Numbered from the stretch's first letter, positions 2-13,338 are shown. The stretch is DNA of 20,000 nt from an uncultured virus (IMG/VR IMGVR_UViG_3300044630_007810) (IMGVR_UViG_3300044630_007810), one strand, 5' to 3'. The notes: generated from the letters alone by a model not told the origin. Numbers and translations: made by a program.

Positions 2-1360
2 TTTGATTTTGGGGCATTTTCTTCTATTGCTGGTGGCGATGCAAATCAAATCGGAGGATCTTATTCATTTATAGCTGGTGGTTCAGGAAATTATTCAAAT
101 GGCGCATTTTCAAATATATTTGGTGGATTATCAAATCAAGCGTTAGCTCCATTTTCAAACATAATTGGAAGAAGATCAATTGTTTCTGCAACTCATTCAG
201 GAGCAATGGTTCTTTCTGATGGTCAAAATAGAGATCACGCATCAAAAGGCCAACATACATTACATTTAGATTTTGCTAGTGGAGTTTATATTAATAATGT
301 AAAAATTGAACAATTTTTAACAAGTAAAACTCTTTATGTTGACCCAAGCGTGGGTACAGATACTAGAACCTCACTTAGTCGGTATGATATGTCAAAACCA
401 TTTACAACTATTTCTGGCGCAGCTGCTGCCTCAGCGACTGGTGATTTAATTTATGTTCGCGCAGGAACATATGCAATTAATTCTCAGATCAATCTTAACA
501 ATGAAGGAAGCCTATATTTTGAACCTGGAGCAACCGTTAATATAAGAAATAATGTTACGGGATTTTCTTTTAATCAAGCCACAAATGCCTTTCCAACAGG
601 TAATTCGATTCGTATTCAAGGACATGCTGATTTTGTATTAACTGGTTCAGCAGGAATACTAACAATGCCCACTTCAAATAATGCTTCTTCACCACCTATT
701 GTTGCATTTGAATGTAATAGTATTACTGGTCCAAATGCCGCTAATGGTACGCTTTTTAATACTGTGAACGGAGTATTGTCTGTTGATGCTAAAACTATAG
801 CAATGACAACTACATTTACTGCTTCAAATGCTACTGTATTTAATATTACTGGCACTGCAGATGTCACAGCAAGAATTCCATTTGTATATTGTGGAAGATT
901 TGTTAATGGTGCTGGCGCAGCTAATGCTGGTAGCGATGCTGTTGCTCGAATCAATGCTGATATTTGGACTTTGGCAACATACAACGCAACTGCTGGCATG
1001 AGTCTAAGGTTAATTACTACTAACTTTAGAATAGTTAATTATAATCATGTTGGTGTAGGTGCTGCATTAAGTTGGACAGAAAATACCACATTAGAATCTC
1101 ATGGTTTCAAAGGCATTACTTGGAATAGTTTGGCTGGTCAACCGAATATAACATTTGCTTCTACAGTTCTTTCAACAAGTAACAAAATTATCAGATTAGA
1201 CCAAACAAATATAATGCGATACGCAACGACAAACAGTTTAAGCTCTAATATACCTATAAATGTAGGAACATATGGTACATTTGCATCAGTGCCAGCAACT
1301 TCAAACGTTACATTTAAGATTGGTTCATTCACAGTAGATGCAGACGTAAACACTTATTAA
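2..1360 (+). CDS. Tail fibre/tailspike-like protein, 5'-truncated by the window edge; SxxAGG repeats followed by a probable right-handed beta-helix domain
   Basis: The frame of ORF 206..1360 is open back to position 2 (FDFGAFSSIAGGDANQIGGSYSFIAGGSGN...). It shares the HSGA..DGQ.RDH.SKG.H...LDFASGVY connector with 1371..2306. TLYVDPSVGTD...PFTTI...GDLIYVRAGTY is typical of the start of a pectin-lyase-like beta-helix. Confidence 0.7.
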   Translation, partial: FDFGAFSSIAGGDANQIGGSYSFIAGGSGNYSNGAFSNIFGGLSNQALAPFSNIIGRRSIVSATHSGAMVLSDGQNRDHASKGQHTLHLDFASGVYINNVKIEQFLTSKTLYVDPSVGTDTRTSLSRYDMSKPFTTISGAAAASATGDLIYVRAGTYAINSQINLNNEGSLYFEPGATVNIRNNVTGFSFNQATNAFPTGNSIRIQGHADFVLTGSAGILTMPTSNNASSPPIVAFECNSITGPNAANGTLFNTVNGVLSVDAKTIAMTTTFTASNATVFNITGTADVTARIPFVYCGRFVNGAGAANAGSDAVARINADIWTLATYNATAGMSLRLITTNFRIVNYNHVGVGAALSWTENTTLESHGFKGITWNSLAGQPNITFASTVLSTSNKIIRLDQTNIMRYATTNSLSSNIPINVGTYGTFASVPATSNVTFKIGSFTVDADVNTY

Positions 1361-7391: not shown

Positions 7392-7437
7392 ATGTTTTTG
7401 TAGTTCACTTTTTATTATGAATGTGTATATAATATAT

Positions 7438-7962
7438 ATGGACTATGAATTATTACAAGAATTAATTTCAAAAAACTTATCAATTGCAAAAATAGCTGAA
7501 GAATTAAATTGTAGCAAAACAAATATAAGATATTGGTTAAGGAAGCACGGACTTAATACAAATTTTACATTTTTAAAAGCTGAATTAAAAGATTGCCCTA
7601 ATGGAGAAAGTTGCAAAATTTGTTCAAATAACTTAACTGGTCATCAGAGATTTTTTTGTAGTAAAAAATGTAGAATTAAAAGTAAAAATCCAAATACAGT
7701 AGAAAGACAAAAGAGAATAAGCAAGGATAGAAAACTTGAATTAATCAAAATGAGTGGTGGTTGCTGTGAGGCTTGTGGATATAATAAAAATTATTCTGCT
7801 CTTCAATTTCATCATTTAGATCCATCAAATAAAACTTTTAATATTGACGCGAGAATGCTGTCTAATACAAAATGGGATTCTATTATAAAGGAATGGAGAA
7901 AATGTAAGTTACTATGCGCAAATTGTCATTTTGAAATACATAATCCAGAAAATATTATTTAA
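7438..7962 (+). CDS. HNH endonuclease with N-terminal HTH and zinc-ribbon; start probably 7438 rather than 7417
   Basis: HTH-like SIAKIAEELNCSKTNIRYWL; CKIC..FCSKKC; CEACG..LQFHHLD...LLCANCHFEIH. Confidence 0.85.
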   Translation: MDYELLQELISKNLSIAKIAEELNCSKTNIRYWLRKHGLNTNFTFLKAELKDCPNGESCKICSNNLTGHQRFFCSKKCRIKSKNPNTVERQKRISKDRKLELIKMSGGCCEACGYNKNYSALQFHHLDPSNKTFNIDARMLSNTKWDSIIKEWRKCKLLCANCHFEIHNPENII

Positions 7963-8221: not shown

Positions 8222-9565
8222 ATGGCAGATCTCTATACTTTCCAAAACCTTGGTCAATTGTCGCATACAGCAGGACAAATTCCTTTTGTTTACGATAGGG
8301 CAAATGATCATTATAGACCATTAGAGCAGAAAGATTTGAGTTTTGCCAATTCTGCTGGTTCTACTTCTTTTGATGCGTTTGGTCGCATGAGAACTTCTTC
8401 TCCATTGACCTTATTTGATTCAAGTCATAGATATGCTGACAATGGTCTTTGGTCTACAGCTAGTGGTTTTAGTGGCAGTGGTGTTTTCAATCAAAATCAA
8501 GGATTAGTTGATTTAACTGTAACAAATACTTCTGGTTCATTCGTTACTAGAGAAACAACAAAAGTTTTTGCTTATCAACCAGGAAAATCATTATTAAATT
8601 TAAGTACTTTTGTAATGTCACCAGCAAAAACTGGTTTAAGACAAAGAGTTGGTTACTATGGTGCTGATAATGGTTTCTATTTAGAACAAGCAGACAGTAG
8701 TGTATCTTTTGTAAAAAGAAGTGTTGTAACAGGTTCTTTAGTAAACACACCTGTTTTACAAGCTAATTGGAATGGGGATAAACTTGATGGATCTGGTCCT
8801 TCAGGATTAACTCTTGATCTCACCAACGCACAAATTCTTTGGATGGATCTTGAGTGGTTAGGAGTGGGATCTGTAAGAATGGGGTTTGTTATTAATGGAC
8901 AATTTATTCTTTGTCATACTTTTCATCACGCCAATATTATTGCTTCTACTTATATTACTACAGCTTCTTTGCCGCTGAGATATGAAATAGCAAATACTGC
9001 CGCAACTATTGGCAGCAGTACATTGAAACAAATTTGTTCTTCTGTGATTTCAGAAGGTGGATATGAATTGAGAGGATTACAACAAGCAGTAAGTCAAGAT
9101 GTCAATGCCCCTTACGAGTTAATAACAACGGTAAATACTGACTACCCAGTAATTACTATTAAATTAAAGTCAACAAGATTAGACGCAATAGTAATTCTTA
9201 CTGCGCTTTCTATTTTACCAACAACAACTGGTAATTTTAAATGGAAAATAATTGCAAACGGGACAACAAGTGGTGGAAGTGGAGACTGGATTTCTGCTGG
9301 AGCAAATTCTGCTGTAGAATATAAAAAAGATGCCACAACCATTTCTGGTGGTAGAATACTTGCCGCAGGATTTATTAGCCAAACAAATCAAGCAAGTGCA
9401 ACTCTCGACATCTTAAAAGAAGCTCTTTTTAAATTCCAATTAGAAAGAAATGGTTTAACTGGTGCTGCTCAAGAATTAACATTAGCTATTTCTGCTGGAA
9501 CCGCAACAGGAGGAAGTCCTGCAAAAGTTCTTGCCTCAATGGATTGGGAAGAAATAAGTAGATAA
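8222..9565 (+). CDS. Probable virion structural protein (beta-rich) lying antisense within the tRNA array
   Basis: 447 aa, Ser/Thr/Gly-rich. The DAFGR.R.S.P.TLFDS, YQPGKS and EWLGVGSVR motifs are familiar from large-phage proteins. GTGTAA lies 8 nt before the ATG. Confidence 0.65.
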   Translation: MADLYTFQNLGQLSHTAGQIPFVYDRANDHYRPLEQKDLSFANSAGSTSFDAFGRMRTSSPLTLFDSSHRYADNGLWSTASGFSGSGVFNQNQGLVDLTVTNTSGSFVTRETTKVFAYQPGKSLLNLSTFVMSPAKTGLRQRVGYYGADNGFYLEQADSSVSFVKRSVVTGSLVNTPVLQANWNGDKLDGSGPSGLTLDLTNAQILWMDLEWLGVGSVRMGFVINGQFILCHTFHHANIIASTYITTASLPLRYEIANTAATIGSSTLKQICSSVISEGGYELRGLQQAVSQDVNAPYELITTVNTDYPVITIKLKSTRLDAIVILTALSILPTTTGNFKWKIIANGTTSGGSGDWISAGANSAVEYKKDATTISGGRILAAGFISQTNQASATLDILKEALFKFQLERNGLTGAAQELTLAISAGTATGGSPAKVLASMDWEEISR

Positions 9566-9800: not shown

Positions 9801-9872
9801 TCGGGTAATTGAGAATCGAACTCAACTAAACTTGCTCCCAAAGCAAGCGCCTCGCCAGTCGGCCTTTACCCG
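9801..9872 (-). tRNA. tRNA-Pro(UGG), no encoded CCA
   Basis: CGGGTAA/TTACCCG acceptor, CTTGC-TTTGGGA-GCAAG arm, TTCGATT T-loop. Confidence 0.88.
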
Positions 9873-10405
9873 ATAAAATTATTTTTAAAGTTTTTCACAT
9901 ATTCATCCACTTTATCTATTATAAGATTTGAATATTTACTATGTATATATTGATGATGTGTTGGACATAATGGAACCAAATTTATAGGATCATTATCTTT
10001 ATGATTTTTATTATAATGATGGACAGTAACTATTTTGTCTTCATCACAAACCACACATTTTTTTTCATGATATAAAAAACAAGTAGATCTATATGCATTT
10101 TTATTCCAATTGCCGTGTTTTTCACCAGATCTAAAAAAAGTATTTGAACATGAATATGAACAAGTTGTTTTTTCTCTTCGATGATTTTTTTGAGTTATAA
10201 ATTCTAAATCACAAACTGGACAAATTTTTTTAACAAATGGGTATTTAGTTTGGTTAAACTTTAGATTAAAATGAGAAATATCAAAATTATTATCTTTAAT
10301 AATTTTATTTACCTTGCGTATGCTAGATCCATTAACTGGTAAATTGAGTTTTCTACAGACATCAGATTTTGAATGACTCGATTGAATTATTTTTTTCAAA
10401 TCCAT
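9866..10405 (-). CDS. HNH endonuclease with zinc-ribbon
   Basis: CPVC..TCSYSC; CVVC..VTVHH...N...NLVPLCPTHHQYIH. Confidence 0.85.
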   Translation of the reverse strand: MDLKKIIQSSHSKSDVCRKLNLPVNGSSIRKVNKIIKDNNFDISHFNLKFNQTKYPFVKKICPVCDLEFITQKNHRREKTTCSYSCSNTFFRSGEKHGNWNKNAYRSTCFLYHEKKCVVCDEDKIVTVHHYNKNHKDNDPINLVPLCPTHHQYIHSKYSNLIIDKVDEYVKNFKNNFIG

Positions 10406-10488
10406 ATAATTATATACATTTTATTATCGTAATAGTGAAATTTGAATTCCAAATGCAATATTCTACCAAGTTTAATTTTATTTAAAAA

Positions 10489-10562
10489 TGGAGGCCATTG
10501 ACAGAATCGAACTGTCATCCGACGATTACAAATCGCCCGTTTTACCATTAAACTAAACGGCC
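10489..10562 (-). tRNA. tRNA-Thr(UGU)
   Basis: GGCCGTT/AATGGCC acceptor, GGCGA-TTTGTAA-TCGTC arm, TCCA end. Confidence 0.9.
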
Positions 10563-10564
10563 TA

Positions 10565-10639
10565 TGGCTCCGATTCGTGGGATCGAACCACGGACCCAGC
10601 GATTAACAGTCGCTTGCTCTGCCTCTGAGCTAAATCGGA
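10565..10639 (-). tRNA. tRNA-Asn(GUU)
   Basis: TCCGATT/AATCGGA acceptor, AGCGA-CTGTTAA-TCGCT arm, GCCA end. Confidence 0.95.
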
Positions 10640-10650
10640 GTTAAAAATAC

Positions 10651-10788
10651 TTTCTATTGCTGAAGAAGCTTTGGTCTTAAAGACACCACTCGTTTATCCT
10701 TCTGTCACTTTTCTGCTAGTAGACGCTCGTCGGAGATTTCCAATCTGCTTTCCCAACATACTTCGGGCGATAAAGACCACAATAGAAA
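10651..10788 (-). ncRNA. Unidentified structured RNA (~138 nt)
   Basis: Closing helices UUUCUAUUG/CAAUAGAAA and UGGUCUU/AAGACCA, with further inner helices; no ORF. Confidence 0.6.
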
Positions 10789-10806
10789 AAACATAGAAAA
10801 TGATTT

Positions 10807-10903
10807 GCCCATAACAGATTGCTGTCACACTCACCAAGGGCTGTGGCTATCTAGGAACCACACCTAGCTGCGTCATGTCTTTGCATTCGTGCATGATACG
10901 AAT
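10807..10903 (-). ncRNA. Unidentified RNA with two candidate H-type pseudoknots and a 3' hairpin
   Basis: AUUCGU/ACGAAU with loop UCAUG pairing to downstream CAUGA; CUAGG/CCUAG with loop UGUGGUU pairing to AGCCACA; GCCC/GGGC enclosing GUGACAG/CUGUUAU. Confidence 0.5.
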
Positions 10904-10973
10904 TGCGAGGGGAAGGAATTTAACCTCCACTCTAGACTATGGGCCTAGCGATCTCCGCATGATCCCTCTCGCA
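10903..10973 (-). tRNA. Non-canonical tRNA-like element with CAU anticodon
   Basis: Cloverleaf with UGCGAG/CUCGCA acceptor, GAUC/GAUC D-stem, CUAGG-CCCAUAG-UCUAG arm and GGAGG-UUAAAUU-CCUUC T-arm; C33, no CCA. Confidence 0.6.
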
Positions 10974-10978
10974 AAGTG

Positions 10979-11171
10979 TTTTCCCCACTACCGATTAATT
11001 AGCCAAGCGGAGCTTTGACCAATTTGAAGAAACACAGTGACTATTTCATCTTGGTAGCGACTCCAAGCCTACTTTAATGTGTGTCGGATTACATTTAGCA
11101 TCATCGGGTTGCTAACCCGCCTTTAGCCTTAATGCTCATTGTAGGATCATCGCCTACAATGGCAGGGAAAA
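10979..11171 (-). ncRNA. Unidentified multibranched structured RNA (~190 nt)
   Basis: Closing helix UUUUCCCUGCC/GGUAGUGGGGAAAA encloses six hairpins of 5-10 bp. The G.U pairs work only on the minus strand. Confidence 0.7.
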
Positions 11172-11174
11172 AAT

Positions 11175-11252
11175 TGGTTGCGGGTTTCGGAATTGCACCG
11201 AAACTACTTCTGCTTATGAGACAGATCCAGCACTACTACTGGTTGACCCGCG
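11175..11252 (-). tRNA. Initiator-like tRNA-Met(CAU), atypical
   Basis: CGCGGGT/ACCCGCA acceptor with C1:A72 mismatch, ACCA end, TCTGT-CTCATAA-GCAGA arm, T-loop TGCAATT. Confidence 0.8.
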
Positions 11253-11333
11253 ATTAAAAATTAGTAGGTTTATCTCAACCCAATCTCCCTTTCGGACCTT
11301 AGTAACTTCTGGTGTTTACTACCCTCAATTTTT

Positions 11334-11361
11334 ATTTTAATCAAATTTGTGTTTTTGTCAA
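11334..11361 (-). promoter_or_regulatory. Sigma70-type promoter heading the tRNA/ncRNA operon
   Basis: TTGACA-16 nt-TAAAAT directly upstream of the first structured segment. Confidence 0.6.
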
Positions 11362-11368
11362 CATAGAT

Positions 11369-11941
11369 TTACACAGAACCCAAAAAATATTCCCACTCTT
11401 CTCTTACCTTACTTGTGTTCAACATTAAAGCGGGAATTTCTGGCGCAGCAACTGGTTCATTTTTAACATTAAAAAATGGAAACTTACTAGCCTTTCTTGT
11501 GTTGCAAGGTTTACATGCCAATGTTCTATTTTCATGATCATCAGTCCCCCCTTTACTTTTGGGGTTGATGTGATCAATTGTTAAATCAGCGATTTTAAAT
11601 TTATTTAAACAATACTGACAAGTAAAGTTATAAATCTTTGCCATCTCCAAGGTGGTCAATTTCTTTTTCCTTGGGCGACGAAAAAATTTACTCGTTACGA
11701 TAATAACAGTTGGAATAGGCCAAACACCTTTAGCACTTCTCAATACAGGTTGATCTTCATAAAATTCAGCATCTTTATTCCATCTATCTAAAGAATGAAA
11801 AACATTATTGTTTTTATCGAGCGCAGTAATATGACCCTTCAACAAATGTGAGAATGCCGCTCTTGCTGTAATAGCATTGATTGGTTGCCAAGCATTATTA
11901 AGCAAAAGTGTTGTTTTACATTGCGATGTTACAATATTCAT
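11369..11941 (-). CDS. HNH endonuclease (McrA-like family with LxLN..xxP N-terminus); start probably 11941
   Basis: LLLNNAWQPI; TCQYC..LTIDHINPKSKGG...N..LACKPCNTRK. The ATG at 11941 overlaps the upstream TGA. Confidence 0.88.
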   Translation of the reverse strand: MNIVTSQCKTTLLLNNAWQPINAITARAAFSHLLKGHITALDKNNNVFHSLDRWNKDAEFYEDQPVLRSAKGVWPIPTVIIVTSKFFRRPRKKKLTTLEMAKIYNFTCQYCLNKFKIADLTIDHINPKSKGGTDDHENRTLACKPCNTRKASKFPFFNVKNEPVAAPEIPALMLNTSKVREEWEYFLGSV

Positions 11942-12639
11942 TTTCTTAAATATTTCCAATCTTTCCATTTGATAGAATTATTTGCGACCCTCCAACGACA
12001 AGTATCTTTATGTATATTTAAAGATATAGATGCTTGTAAAATTGTTGCATATTTAATTCCATTTATTTGTACTGGTCTGGCTGCTGGATTTTTACTACCT
12101 AATTTTGATTCAGATATTTTTTTTCTACTTTCTAGATTATGTTTATGTGGAAGTCTTTTTTTACCCAGTTCACTTAATTTTTTTCTAGTCTCTTTTGTAT
12201 GTTTCTTCCCATAAAATGGATTTTTTTTTCCAAATAAGTTTAGATGATAATTTGAATTTTTTATTTTTAATTTAGATTCTTCAGATAGAAAAACCCCCCC
12301 CTTTCGCAAAGATAAACATTTAGACCTTTCTTCTTTTAACTTTTTATATAAACGAGAATTTATATATCTTAAATTATTGCCTCTTGGATTAGCTATATTT
12401 AAAAAATGAAAAGCATGTAACATTTTAAAATAAAAAACTCCAGTTGTAAATTTACATAATAAATAATGGCACAAGTAATGCTCTCTGGCGGTTAATTTAA
12501 CAATATTAGATTTAATATCTTTTCCATTTAATGAAATTGGAATAATGTGATGTTTTTCCACATAACCAGAAATTATTTTATTTTTAGCATTGTCTATGAT
12601 TTTGTGATAAAGTTTATAGTATTTATTTTTTAAAAACAT
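11938..12639 (-). CDS. Free-standing HNH homing endonuclease with NUMOD3-like repeats
   Basis: EKHHIIP...N.V.LTAREHYLCH; NPFYGKKHTKETRKKLS. Confidence 0.85.
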   Translation of the reverse strand: MFLKNKYYKLYHKIIDNAKNKIISGYVEKHHIIPISLNGKDIKSNIVKLTAREHYLCHYLLCKFTTGVFYFKMLHAFHFLNIANPRGNNLRYINSRLYKKLKEERSKCLSLRKGGVFLSEESKLKIKNSNYHLNLFGKKNPFYGKKHTKETRKKLSELGKKRLPHKHNLESRKKISESKLGSKNPAARPVQINGIKYATILQASISLNIHKDTCRWRVANNSIKWKDWKYLRK

Positions 12640-12687: not shown

Positions 12688-13338
12688 TTATTTTAAAATA
12701 TATTTACAAGAAATTGGAAAATGTTGAAGCATGATATCTTTAATTTGTTGAGCAACAAATCTAGTTTCTAATTGGACATCTTTAGATAGCCTTAGATTAC
12801 AAACCCTAGAGAAAAAATATAAAGTTCCAGACCAATACCATTCTGTCATCATATTTTGAGGGAGAACCATTCTTGCTTGTTCTGGGCATACGCCAGCATT
12901 CAAAAGAGATTTATAAGTAGAAATAGCTATATCACAACTCGCATAAATGCTACAATTATCCGAAAAAGAAACGTCCACAAATTGATCTTCATGAGAGCCT
13001 TGTTTTTTATCCTTATTTCTTTTTCTCCAATTGTCTGGATAGTAGATTTCAGGCTCCGAATCTACATAACGACGACTTACTTCATTAATAACCCCACCAA
13101 CTTGATGTTTAGCTAGTTGTCTAGCAACAAAGATTGGCGCTTTAATATGAAAAGAAAGTGAAGCGTGACCAAATGGAGTCCAATGATTTTCTCTTGCCAA
13201 AAAAGCAATAAGTTTTTCATCACCCTCTTTGAAGCTTCCATCTTCATTAAAATCAGATTTCTTATTGAAAGAAACTCTTGCGGCATTAACCACAGAAATA
13301 TCTGATCCCATTTTGTCAATAAATTCGACTTTAATCAT
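12688..13338 (-). CDS. thyX: FAD-dependent thymidylate synthase
   Basis: NAARVSF, HWTPFGH, APIFVARQLAKHQVG..NEVSRRYV, PEQARMVLPQ, Q.E.R motifs. Confidence 0.95.
   Translation of the reverse strand: MIKVEFIDKMGSDISVVNAARVSFNKKSDFNEDGSFKEGDEKLIAFLARENHWTPFGHASLSFHIKAPIFVARQLAKHQVGGVINEVSRRYVDSEPEIYYPDNWRKRNKDKKQGSHEDQFVDVSFSDNCSIYASCDIAISTYKSLLNAGVCPEQARMVLPQNMMTEWYWSGTLYFFSRVCNLRLSKDVQLETRFVAQQIKDIMLQHFPISCKYILK

Follow-up and report, generated by a model that had tools for sequence, protein, structure and literature searches.

A compact structured RNA embedded in the transfer RNA arrays of uncultured viruses

The window analysed here is a 20,000-nucleotide (nt) stretch of DNA from an uncultured virus (IMG/VR IMGVR_UViG_3300044630_007810), in which a 193-nt RNA element was localised on the minus strand, at positions 10979-11171, within an array of transfer RNA (tRNA) genes. 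This element is a member of a real RNA family, of the known kind of structured RNAs embedded in phage tRNA operons, which is apparently undescribed. Its fold, a four-way junction with two neighbouring arms joined at their tips by a kissing loop, is well supported by the comparison of 23 variants, and the RNA would be released, stable and functional under the interpretation discussed below. A first-pass annotation, made from the sequence alone, had placed a structured, multibranched minus-strand RNA at this point of the tRNA operon, and the sequence that it quoted was indeed found there.

The minus strand of the element folds with an energy of -61.4 kcal/mol (z = -3.44) and none of 200 shuffled sequences was as stable, in agreement with the multibranched RNA initially annotated; on the plus strand, z was -1.83 and 9 of 200 shuffles were as good. 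The structure retained after comparison with relatives has an energy of -52.8 kcal/mol in the window against -61.4 for the minimum free energy fold, which includes pairs that are not kept in the relatives. Eight of the 56 pairs of this comparative structure are G.U and would be A.C on the opposite strand, hence the RNA strand is the minus one, as had been deduced from the same kind of pairs. End to end, the element of the window scores 211.5 bits with covariance model R1. It is real, encoded on the minus strand and far more structured than expected by chance.

By motif scans, the element was found on 34 viral contigs of IMG/VR, and the IMG/VR and metagenome scans together yielded 23 distinct variants in five lineages, with sizes ranging from a minimal form of about 160 nt to the 193 nt of the window. 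The main clade comprises 19 variants, and the three that were measured (L055, L057 and L100) share 77-87% identity with the window. Each of the further lineages is represented by a single variant (L062, L067, L272 and L273), 54-59% identical to it.

Predicted fold and covariation

The supported fold, as predicted from the comparison of variants, is a four-way junction formed by helices P1 to P4 with an optional fifth arm, P5. Its parts are listed below, RNA position n corresponding to window base 11172-n.

10979-11171, minus strand: whole RNA element, 193 nt, delimited by its sequence, its fold (z = -3.44) and model R1
11162-11171, minus strand: 5' strand of P1, UUUUCCCUGC (RNA 1-10), pairing with 10979-10988
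10979-10988, minus strand: 3' strand of P1, GUGGGGAAAA (RNA 184-193), its GUGGG part invariant in 23 variants
11137-11161, minus strand: hairpin P2, CAUUGUAGG/CCUACAAUG (RNA 11-19 with 27-35), 7-nt loop with an invariant A
11091-11135, minus strand: arm P3, lower GCA/UGU (RNA 37-39 with 79-81), middle GGC/GCU (44-46 with 73-75), an internal loop, then P3b
11105-11119, minus strand: hairpin P3b, CGGG/CCCG (RNA 53-56 with 64-67), 7-nt loop UUAGCAA
11111-11114, minus strand: kissing-loop strand UAGC in the P3b loop (RNA 58-61), pairing with 11055-11058
11086-11090, minus strand: junction strand J3/4, AAUCC, with A82, U84, C85 and C86 invariant in 23 variants
11031-11085, minus strand: arm P4, GACACA/UGUGUU (RNA 87-92 with 136-141), then AUUA/UAGU (94-97 with 129-132), internal loops and P4c
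11050-11067, minus strand: hairpin P4c, CUUGG/CCAAG (RNA 105-109 with 118-122), two of five pairs compensated
11055-11058, minus strand: kissing-loop strand GCUA in the P4c loop (RNA 114-117)
10997-11024, minus strand: hairpin P5, AAUUGGUCAA/UUGGCUAAUU (RNA 148-157 with 166-175), optional peripheral arm
10989-10996, minus strand: junction strand J5/1, AAUCGGUA, with UCGGUA invariant in 23 variants

The fold was evaluated on a MAFFT alignment of 21 variants on which no structure was imposed. On this unfitted alignment, 97.4% of 1149 cells were paired under the revised structure, against 90.4% under the structure originally drawn, and 19 of the 57 pairs were compensated. None of 500 column shuffles reached the score of the revised structure, and sliding the partners by one to three columns lowered pairing to 32-48%. 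The same helices were returned independently by RNAalifold. With the R1-fitted alignment, which brings in two more lineages (23 variants) and leans toward the model by construction, 98.0% of 1214 cells were paired and 27 of 54 pairs were compensated; the substitutions found in homologues, on which the first-pass annotation had staked its structure, leave the revised helices intact. Besides, all four combinations AU/AU, AU/GC, GC/AU and GC/GC were observed at two separate pairs, a pattern that one inherited change cannot explain. In the four divergent lineages, P2, P3, P3b and P4c are nearly wholly rewritten and yet still paired. When all column pairs were scanned crudely, those with at least three Watson-Crick types all belonged to the model, the scan being too noisy, with so few lineages, for detecting further tertiary pairs.

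The closing helix P1 had been drawn with a bulge. The helix itself is present and the bulge proved unneeded, the continuous pairing of UUUUCCCUGC with GUGGGGAAAA reading at least as well. P1 is paired in 97.6% of the cells of the 23 variants, with one compensated pair (C-G to U-A) and three pairs that change on one side only and retain pairing, and RNAalifold predicts the same helix. In P2, seven of nine pairs are compensated (97.6% of cells paired, 23 variants); its sequence is wholly different in L067, L272 and L273, where the hairpin still forms. Pair 39:79 of P3 is A-U in 12 variants, G-C in seven, U-G in three and U-A in one, and all four pairs of P3b are compensated. P4, likewise predicted by RNAalifold, covaries at pairs 90:138 (AU 12, GC 8, GU 3) and 91:137 (CG 19, UA 2, UG 2), contains conserved internal loops with AAGUAGG on one side and AUGAAA on the other, and shows in L273 a change from U.G to U-A within AUUA/UAGU. 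P5 has four of its seven modelled pairs compensated in the R1-fitted alignment, is shortened or rewritten in several variants and is absent from four of the 23 (L062, L067, L272 and L273). The core of the element is therefore a four-way junction of about 158 nt.

Half of the six-hairpin drawing from which the analysis started had to be abandoned, three of its hairpins not being kept in the relatives. AGCAUUA/UGAUGCU, paired in just 69.2% of the cells, was replaced by the P3 arm; AAUGU/ACAUU (75.2% paired) has no compensated pair; and GAAAUA/UGUUUC (90.4% paired), also without a compensated pair, overlaps and competes with a covarying helix. The remainder was kept. In the 21 unfitted variants, AUUGUAGG/CCUACAAU is 96.4% paired with three of eight pairs compensated, CUUGG/CCAAG is 94.3% paired with two of five, and the last hairpin, AAUUGGUCAA/UUGGCUAAUU, is 98.8% paired with four of ten. 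For CGGGUU/AACCCG, the first four pairs hold and the fifth breaks in five of the 21 variants.

Kissing loop and invariant core

The 4-bp contact UAGC/GCUA is paired in all 92 cells of the 23 variants. Pair 59:116 occurs as AU in 13 variants, CG in four, GC in four and GU in two, and pair 60:115 as GC in 22 and AU in one, G60-C115 being replaced by A-U in L272. As read from this covariation, a kissing loop joins the tips of P3 and P4. P3 and P4 adjoin each other and are similar in length, so a clasp within one molecule is the most economical interpretation, and pairing between molecules would leave the same signal. The loop contact proposed initially, CGAC/GUCG, was dropped, since the second loop becomes GUAG or AUUAG in eight of 21 variants where CGAC stays fixed.

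Across the 23 variants, 24 of the 74 unpaired columns are invariant, though the four divergent lineages share so little identity with the window. These columns are clustered in J3/4 (A82, U84, C85 and C86), in the internal loops of P4 (A98, A99, U101, A102, A127 and A128), in the CAC at 133-135 and in the UCGGUA of J5/1 (178-183). Stems that vary and compensate around junction and loop bases that stay fixed are the signature of selection on a three-dimensional shape or a binding surface. The GG of J5/1 could pair with the CC of J3/4, neither side of which varies. An extra junction helix, CCGA/UCGG, is compatible with every variant and never varies; it was set aside for lack of covariation. A K-turn or loop-E motif in the P3 and P4 internal loops was also rejected, as the key G and A bases vary among the variants, the window included.

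tRNA-array context, proposed release and possible expression

The closest neighbours of the element in the window are the following.

11175-11252, minus strand: upstream tRNA-Met(CAU), called by ARAGORN, with an encoded CCA ending at 11175
10904-10972, minus strand: downstream tRNA-like element with a CAU anticodon, 27.7 bits with the Rfam tRNA model against a cut-off of 29, no ARAGORN call
11334-11361, minus strand: promoter-like site TTGACA-16-TAAAAT, preceding both tRNA-Met and the element and agreeing with the consensus at 11 of 12 positions

The element had been described as lying between two CAU tRNAs, 3 nt after a CCA and 5 nt before the next tRNA-like element. The upstream part of this description holds, the CCA of the called tRNA-Met ending 3 nt before the 5' end of the element; the downstream CAU neighbour is a sub-threshold tRNA-like element, and it is separated from the folded element by six bases (10973-10978), not five. 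Three copies of this tRNA-like element in relatives score 31.3, 29.4 and 25.6 bits with the Rfam tRNA model, of which the cut-off is 29 bits. It is almost invariant across relatives yet atypical, with an A.C mismatch in the acceptor stem, a C where a U normally precedes the anticodon and an unusual T-loop, and its CCA is not encoded. As for tRNA-Met, it is not listed by the Rfam tRNA model even at an expectation value (E) of up to 10; the top of its acceptor stem shows a C.A mismatch, a feature of bacterial initiator tRNA, and its T-loop reads UGCAAUU. The promoter-like site, which is a match to the consensus, is the best one within 10300-11500.

In the 23 loci, all tRNAs share the strand of the element and none lies on the opposite one. 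In nine variants, a tRNA called by ARAGORN (Met, Gly, Asp, Trp or Lys) lies upstream with its end 0-3 nt from P1, and another RNA ending in CCA or UCA lies at the same distance in 11 others. Flanks compatible with release by tRNA processing, as suggested in the first-pass annotation, are thus found upstream in 20 of the 23 variants. Downstream, the tRNA-like CAU element is present in 18 variants and absent from L106; tRNA-His, tRNA-Ala and tRNA-Cys start 9, 2 and 8 nt past the modelled element in L062, L067 and L272, respectively. Since the neighbours change and the limits of the element stay fixed, the element constitutes an independent module. Excision by the enzymes that mature the flanking tRNAs would be consistent with this arrangement, and we infer that the element is released as a discrete RNA.

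Regarding expression, 15 RNA-labelled rows, among rows from 10 studies, contain part of a 651-base stretch. Of four runs examined, three (X1, X7 and X8, from three studies) gave metatranscriptome contigs covering the element; the contig of run X3 covers only 10803-10942, outside the element. These contigs suggest weakly that the element is expressed.

Distribution

Model R1 found one copy of the element per viral record in the four records searched, one of them being 97% complete at 173,760 bp. The wider search for relatives was made by pattern scans, R1 being applied to individual records and candidate loci, and chance motif loci were removed by inspection or by their failure with the covariance model. 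The metagenome motif scan returned 65 loci, of which 15 were members and the other 50 were coding or unrelated sequence. Also discarded as motif-matching non-members were L022, L034 and L115, L268 and L287, and 15 of the 16 loci newly added by a later motif scan. Eight metagenome loci (L072, L076, L089, L090, L104, L109, L110 and L119) form an AT-rich related set that carries both search motifs with a 30-nt spacer; this set was rejected as unrelated to the family, R1 matching none of the three tested (L072, L089 and L110).

Among isolate phages, blastn against 50,697 records gave no match at 1e-5 and, at E of up to 10, just seven short chance matches, with no record covering at least 80% of the query. 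In cellular genomes, a motif scan of 185,579 species (one genome each) returned 57 loci, none of which passes R1; the sole R1 match at E of up to 1 among them was an 8-bit partial one (E 0.77). In the cyanobacterial phylum, R1 with stricter filters found the element in none of 151 sampled genomes. Full-text literature searches located no description of this RNA. For a catalogue listing 10,006 candidate RNAs of viruses (PMC10690425), the motif strings were absent from the six supplementary files searched; its alignment files probably lay outside the search, so that a partial listing there is possible.

Comparison with known RNAs

No match to the element was obtained with the 4227 models of Rfam 15 at gathering threshold, nor did any hit overlap 10979-11171 at E of up to 10 over 10600-11450 (851 bases), in line with the initial statement that it could be assigned to no known family. 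In six relative loci, Rfam likewise gave no match on the element at E of up to 1.

The closest precedent in function and position is provided by rnaC and rnaD (species 1 and 2), two small stable RNAs encoded in the tRNA cluster of T4; the homing endonuclease gene segB lies in that cluster as well (T4 annotation; PMC2330249). These are small RNAs with no assigned function, carried on the tRNA strand of a T4-type tRNA cluster, and the element shares this position, lying inside such a cluster, on the tRNA strand, next to tRNA genes. Like the element, the T4 RNAs adjoin tRNAs, rnaD starting 1 nt after tRNA-Arg and rnaC 6 nt after rnaD (T4 annotation). They are shorter (139 and 119 nt) and their 3' parts look tRNA-like, rnaC having a stretch that resembles a T-arm and rnaD ending in CCA; the element has neither. 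Homology was not detected: R1, run with filters off over T4 69500-73500, gave at most 6 bits (E 0.26), with no match along either RNA.

A second comparison concerns ROOL and GOLLD, which are described as phage and prophage RNAs, often near tRNA islands, that form RNA-only nanocages, GOLLD often exceeding 800 nt (PMC12286853). They share with the element the tRNA-island habitat in phages, the lack of an assigned function and elaborate folds with tertiary RNA-RNA contacts; they differ in being multimeric cages several times larger, a size of about 500-800 nt or more being expected of these classes, the element having 160-193 nt and a single junction. The Rfam models of ROOL and GOLLD do not match the element.

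Several other classes were considered and rejected. A group I intron is contradicted by the absence of an Intron_gpI match at E of up to 10, that model scoring 43.2 bits as a control in the transfer-messenger RNA (tmRNA) of a relative in a search of similar size, and by covarying helices that are nested save for the loop-loop contact; a resemblance to a group I core element before the 3' strand of P4 is likewise unsupported by Intron_gpI. tmRNA was called in the window neither by ARAGORN nor by Rfam, and the tag frame after AAAUAGUC is shifted by indels of 10-11 nt. For Y RNA or YrlA, the YrlA model gave no match on the element, and a TROVE gene was found in none of five related viral records (control genomes being positive, and a host-encoded Ro being possible); an RtcB gene was also found in none of the five. 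Resemblances to 5S ribosomal RNA (3' end and tRNA-like start) and to junction motifs of RNase P, FMN, cobalamin and SAM-I elements had no Rfam match.

In the five-way junction of the lysine riboswitch and the three-way junction of the purine riboswitch, a loop-loop contact keeps two neighbouring arms parallel and the bases of the junction are conserved. The element resembles these aptamers in architecture only, with radiating helices, clasped neighbouring arms and a conserved junction. No riboswitch model of Rfam matches it at E of up to 10, and a riboswitch was rejected, the element lying outside the 5' leader of any gene, flanked by RNA genes, with neither an expression platform nor a terminator-like site downstream on the minus strand.

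Proposed function and alternative explanations

We give about an even chance to the proposal that the locus is the gene for a self-contained structured non-coding RNA that is released, stable, trans-acting and partner-binding. What has been observed is the fold with its kissing loop, the strand, the modular limits of the element and its setting in tRNA arrays, and the following course can be proposed from these features. The element would be transcribed together with the phage tRNAs from the promoter-like site 11361-11334, and would then be excised by the host nucleases responsible for maturing the neighbouring tRNAs. Its 5' end would be generated when the upstream tRNA, which ends in CCA, is processed on its 3' side, and its 3' end when RNase P cleaves the downstream tRNA or tRNA-like element at the 5' terminus; exonucleases would trim the product back to helix P1. 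The freed, presumably stable RNA would fold into the four-way junction P1-P4, with P5 as an option and with P3 and P4 side by side under the 4-bp kissing clasp. Its invariant junction and internal-loop bases would form a specific binding surface, and the RNA would act in trans during infection on a partner, which may be a protein, a small ligand or another RNA. The conservation pattern, taken across the variants, points to a specific partner.

Several observations weigh against this proposal. P1 is without a CCA-like tail, and the genes of candidate partners, Ro/TROVE and RtcB, were not found in the five related viral records. The variants being related, independent events are fewer than the cell counts suggest. 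Hardly any variation occurs in P1, AUUA/UAGU and the bases of the junction, so that these parts of the model draw on conservation and energy. In three of the 23 variants, an ORF (open reading frame) stop codon precedes the element in place of a tRNA; 5' excision therefore cannot always depend on an upstream tRNA. Assembled contigs cannot show the ends, the strand or the level of an RNA, and DNA carry-over into RNA libraries is possible for the metatranscriptome contigs; that of run X8 (593 nt) extends over the element and the RNAs next to it, and looks like a precursor or DNA rather than a released small RNA.

The same data can be read as those of a cis-acting folded spacer, which would prevent misfolding of the tRNA precursor, present or space nuclease sites or block exonucleases, and have no function after release. 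The element is always found within tRNA arrays, abutting tRNA ends, as such a spacer would be. However, an insulator needs stable hairpins only, not 24 invariant unpaired bases or a covarying kissing loop, and the exact boundaries are kept whatever the neighbours, the element persisting even after ORFs; we consider this explanation unlikely. Improbable, in our view, is a decoy or inhibitor RNA whose target would be a host factor, such as an RNA-processing enzyme or a defence nuclease acting on tRNAs, and which would be produced along with the phage tRNAs at which such defences are aimed. Defences that cleave tRNAs can be countered by phage tRNAs, and it is from this background alone that a link of the element to defence would be drawn. 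The element is co-encoded with a large set of tRNAs (11 in the window, and as many as 11 within the 2.5 kb of a relative locus), combines a compact fold with an invariant surface, and was found in none of the cellular genomes searched, all of which would suit a decoy. It is nevertheless unlike a tRNA, having no T-arm, no fixed anticodon-like arm and no CCA tail, and the Rfam models of tRNA, tmRNA and YrlA give no match.

The kissing loop allows another explanation, in which the P3 and P4 loops would pair between molecules and yield dimers or larger assemblies, similar in kind to ROOL and GOLLD. Complementary loops would covary in the same way whether they pair in cis or in trans, and ROOL and GOLLD, often near tRNA islands, do form RNA-only nanocages (PMC12286853). 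Yet neighbouring P3 and P4 arms of similar length on one junction have the geometry of an intramolecular clasp, the element is three to four times smaller than ROOL or GOLLD, and their models fail to match it, which makes self-assembly very improbable. A ribozyme or ligand-sensing RNA, whether self-cleaving, acting on tRNA precursors or riboswitch-like, appears quite improbable as well: the multi-way junction, clasped arms and invariant core are typical of many aptamers and small ribozymes, as is generally known, but no Rfam ribozyme or riboswitch family matches at E of up to 10, and the element is followed by neither an ORF nor a terminator, the next feature being another RNA gene. That the downstream neighbour varies further argues against the control of a particular gene. 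A broader formulation, in which the element would represent a new functional RNA class of large phages, released from a tRNA precursor while having neither its own promoter nor its own terminator, and endowed with an aptamer-like or catalytic core for a small molecule or a host translation or tRNA-processing factor, or self-assembling through the P3 and P4 loops, is in our opinion decidedly unlikely. Finally, a chance structure, a DNA-level element (nuclease target or origin) or a small coding region is scarcely credible and seems largely refuted already by the comparative data. Homing-endonuclease genes do crowd the tRNA array, and a 12-codon ORF begins at the AUG after P2; against these stand the 0/200 folding shuffles and 0/500 column shuffles for chance, the eight G.U pairs for a DNA-level element and, for coding, a start codon that is missing in L067, L272 and L273 and P5 indels of 10-11 nt that shift the frame.

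Phage tRNA clusters have been known to conceal small stable RNAs since T4 species 1 and 2, which, like ROOL and GOLLD, are still without a function. To these, the present family adds a compact fold, 160-193 nt in size and built around a four-way junction and a kissing loop, in which 24 unpaired bases never vary; it is kept by at least five phage lineages inside fluid tRNA arrays invaded by homing endonucleases. Its small size permits direct structural and biochemical work, and the element may offer an easier route to the role of tRNA-operon RNAs in phages. Should it prove to be only a processing spacer, it would show how much structure spacers carry and warn against reading them as empty DNA. 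Its interest is limited by a narrow distribution and sustained by an unusually well-constrained, tractable fold.

Genomic setting and neighbouring features

Judging from its genes, the window appears to come from an uncultivated phage of the T4-like type. The product of a virion protein gene (8222-9565) is about 63% identical to proteins of Synechococcus myovirus (T4-like cyanophage), and a gp23-type capsid gene is carried by the element-bearing relatives G002 and G003. ARAGORN called 11 minus-strand tRNA genes between 6369 and 11252, and Rfam 15 at gathering threshold returned 10 tRNA matches and nothing else over the whole window. Several ORFs with HNH or homing-endonuclease profiles are scattered among the tRNA genes. 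Further features are given below.

8222-9565, plus strand: virion structural protein gene in the middle of the tRNA array, on the opposite strand, 4 nt from tRNA-Val
7417-7962 (plus), 9866-10405 (minus), 11369-11968 (minus), 11938-12639 (minus) and 12688-13338 (minus): coordinates entered for four HNH or homing-endonuclease ORFs in or beside the tRNA array
10800-10903, minus strand: conserved block of about 100 nt, TTCGTAT...GGGCAAAT, on the 3' side of the tRNA-like element, 16 variants
L057:1017-1117, L059:851-951, L080:538-640 (minus strand) and L014:1295-1395: RNA-like module of 101-103 nt in relatives

In relatives G002-G004, the homologue of the virion structural protein gene lies tens of kilobases from the element. 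The last two of the listed endonuclease ORFs follow a thymidylate synthase ORF, which matches just positions 370-583 of an 866-position profile; given this partial coverage, the thymidylate synthase gene may be split or invaded.

The conserved block at 10800-10903 contains one hairpin with a compensated change (CUAGG/CCUAG to CUAGA/UCUAG), and its copy in the window folds no better than shuffles (z = 0.19). In L106, where the tRNA-like element is missing, a block of this type directly adjoins the element. Another RNA-like module, of 101-103 nt, stands immediately 5' of the element in many relatives and is absent from the window; it begins with GGGGCAGAG, ends with CCCCA(C/U)CA and receives no tRNA call from ARAGORN. 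Lastly, L006 carries at 57-654 (plus strand) a phage-encoded tmRNA after tRNA-Met (Rfam tmRNA, 78.4 bits over 64-430), the 3' part of which is interrupted in the T-arm region by an apparent group I intron at 413-618 (43.2 bits with Intron_gpI, of which the cut-off is 50, E 1e-9), the 3' strand of the acceptor and the CCA resuming at about 640-654.

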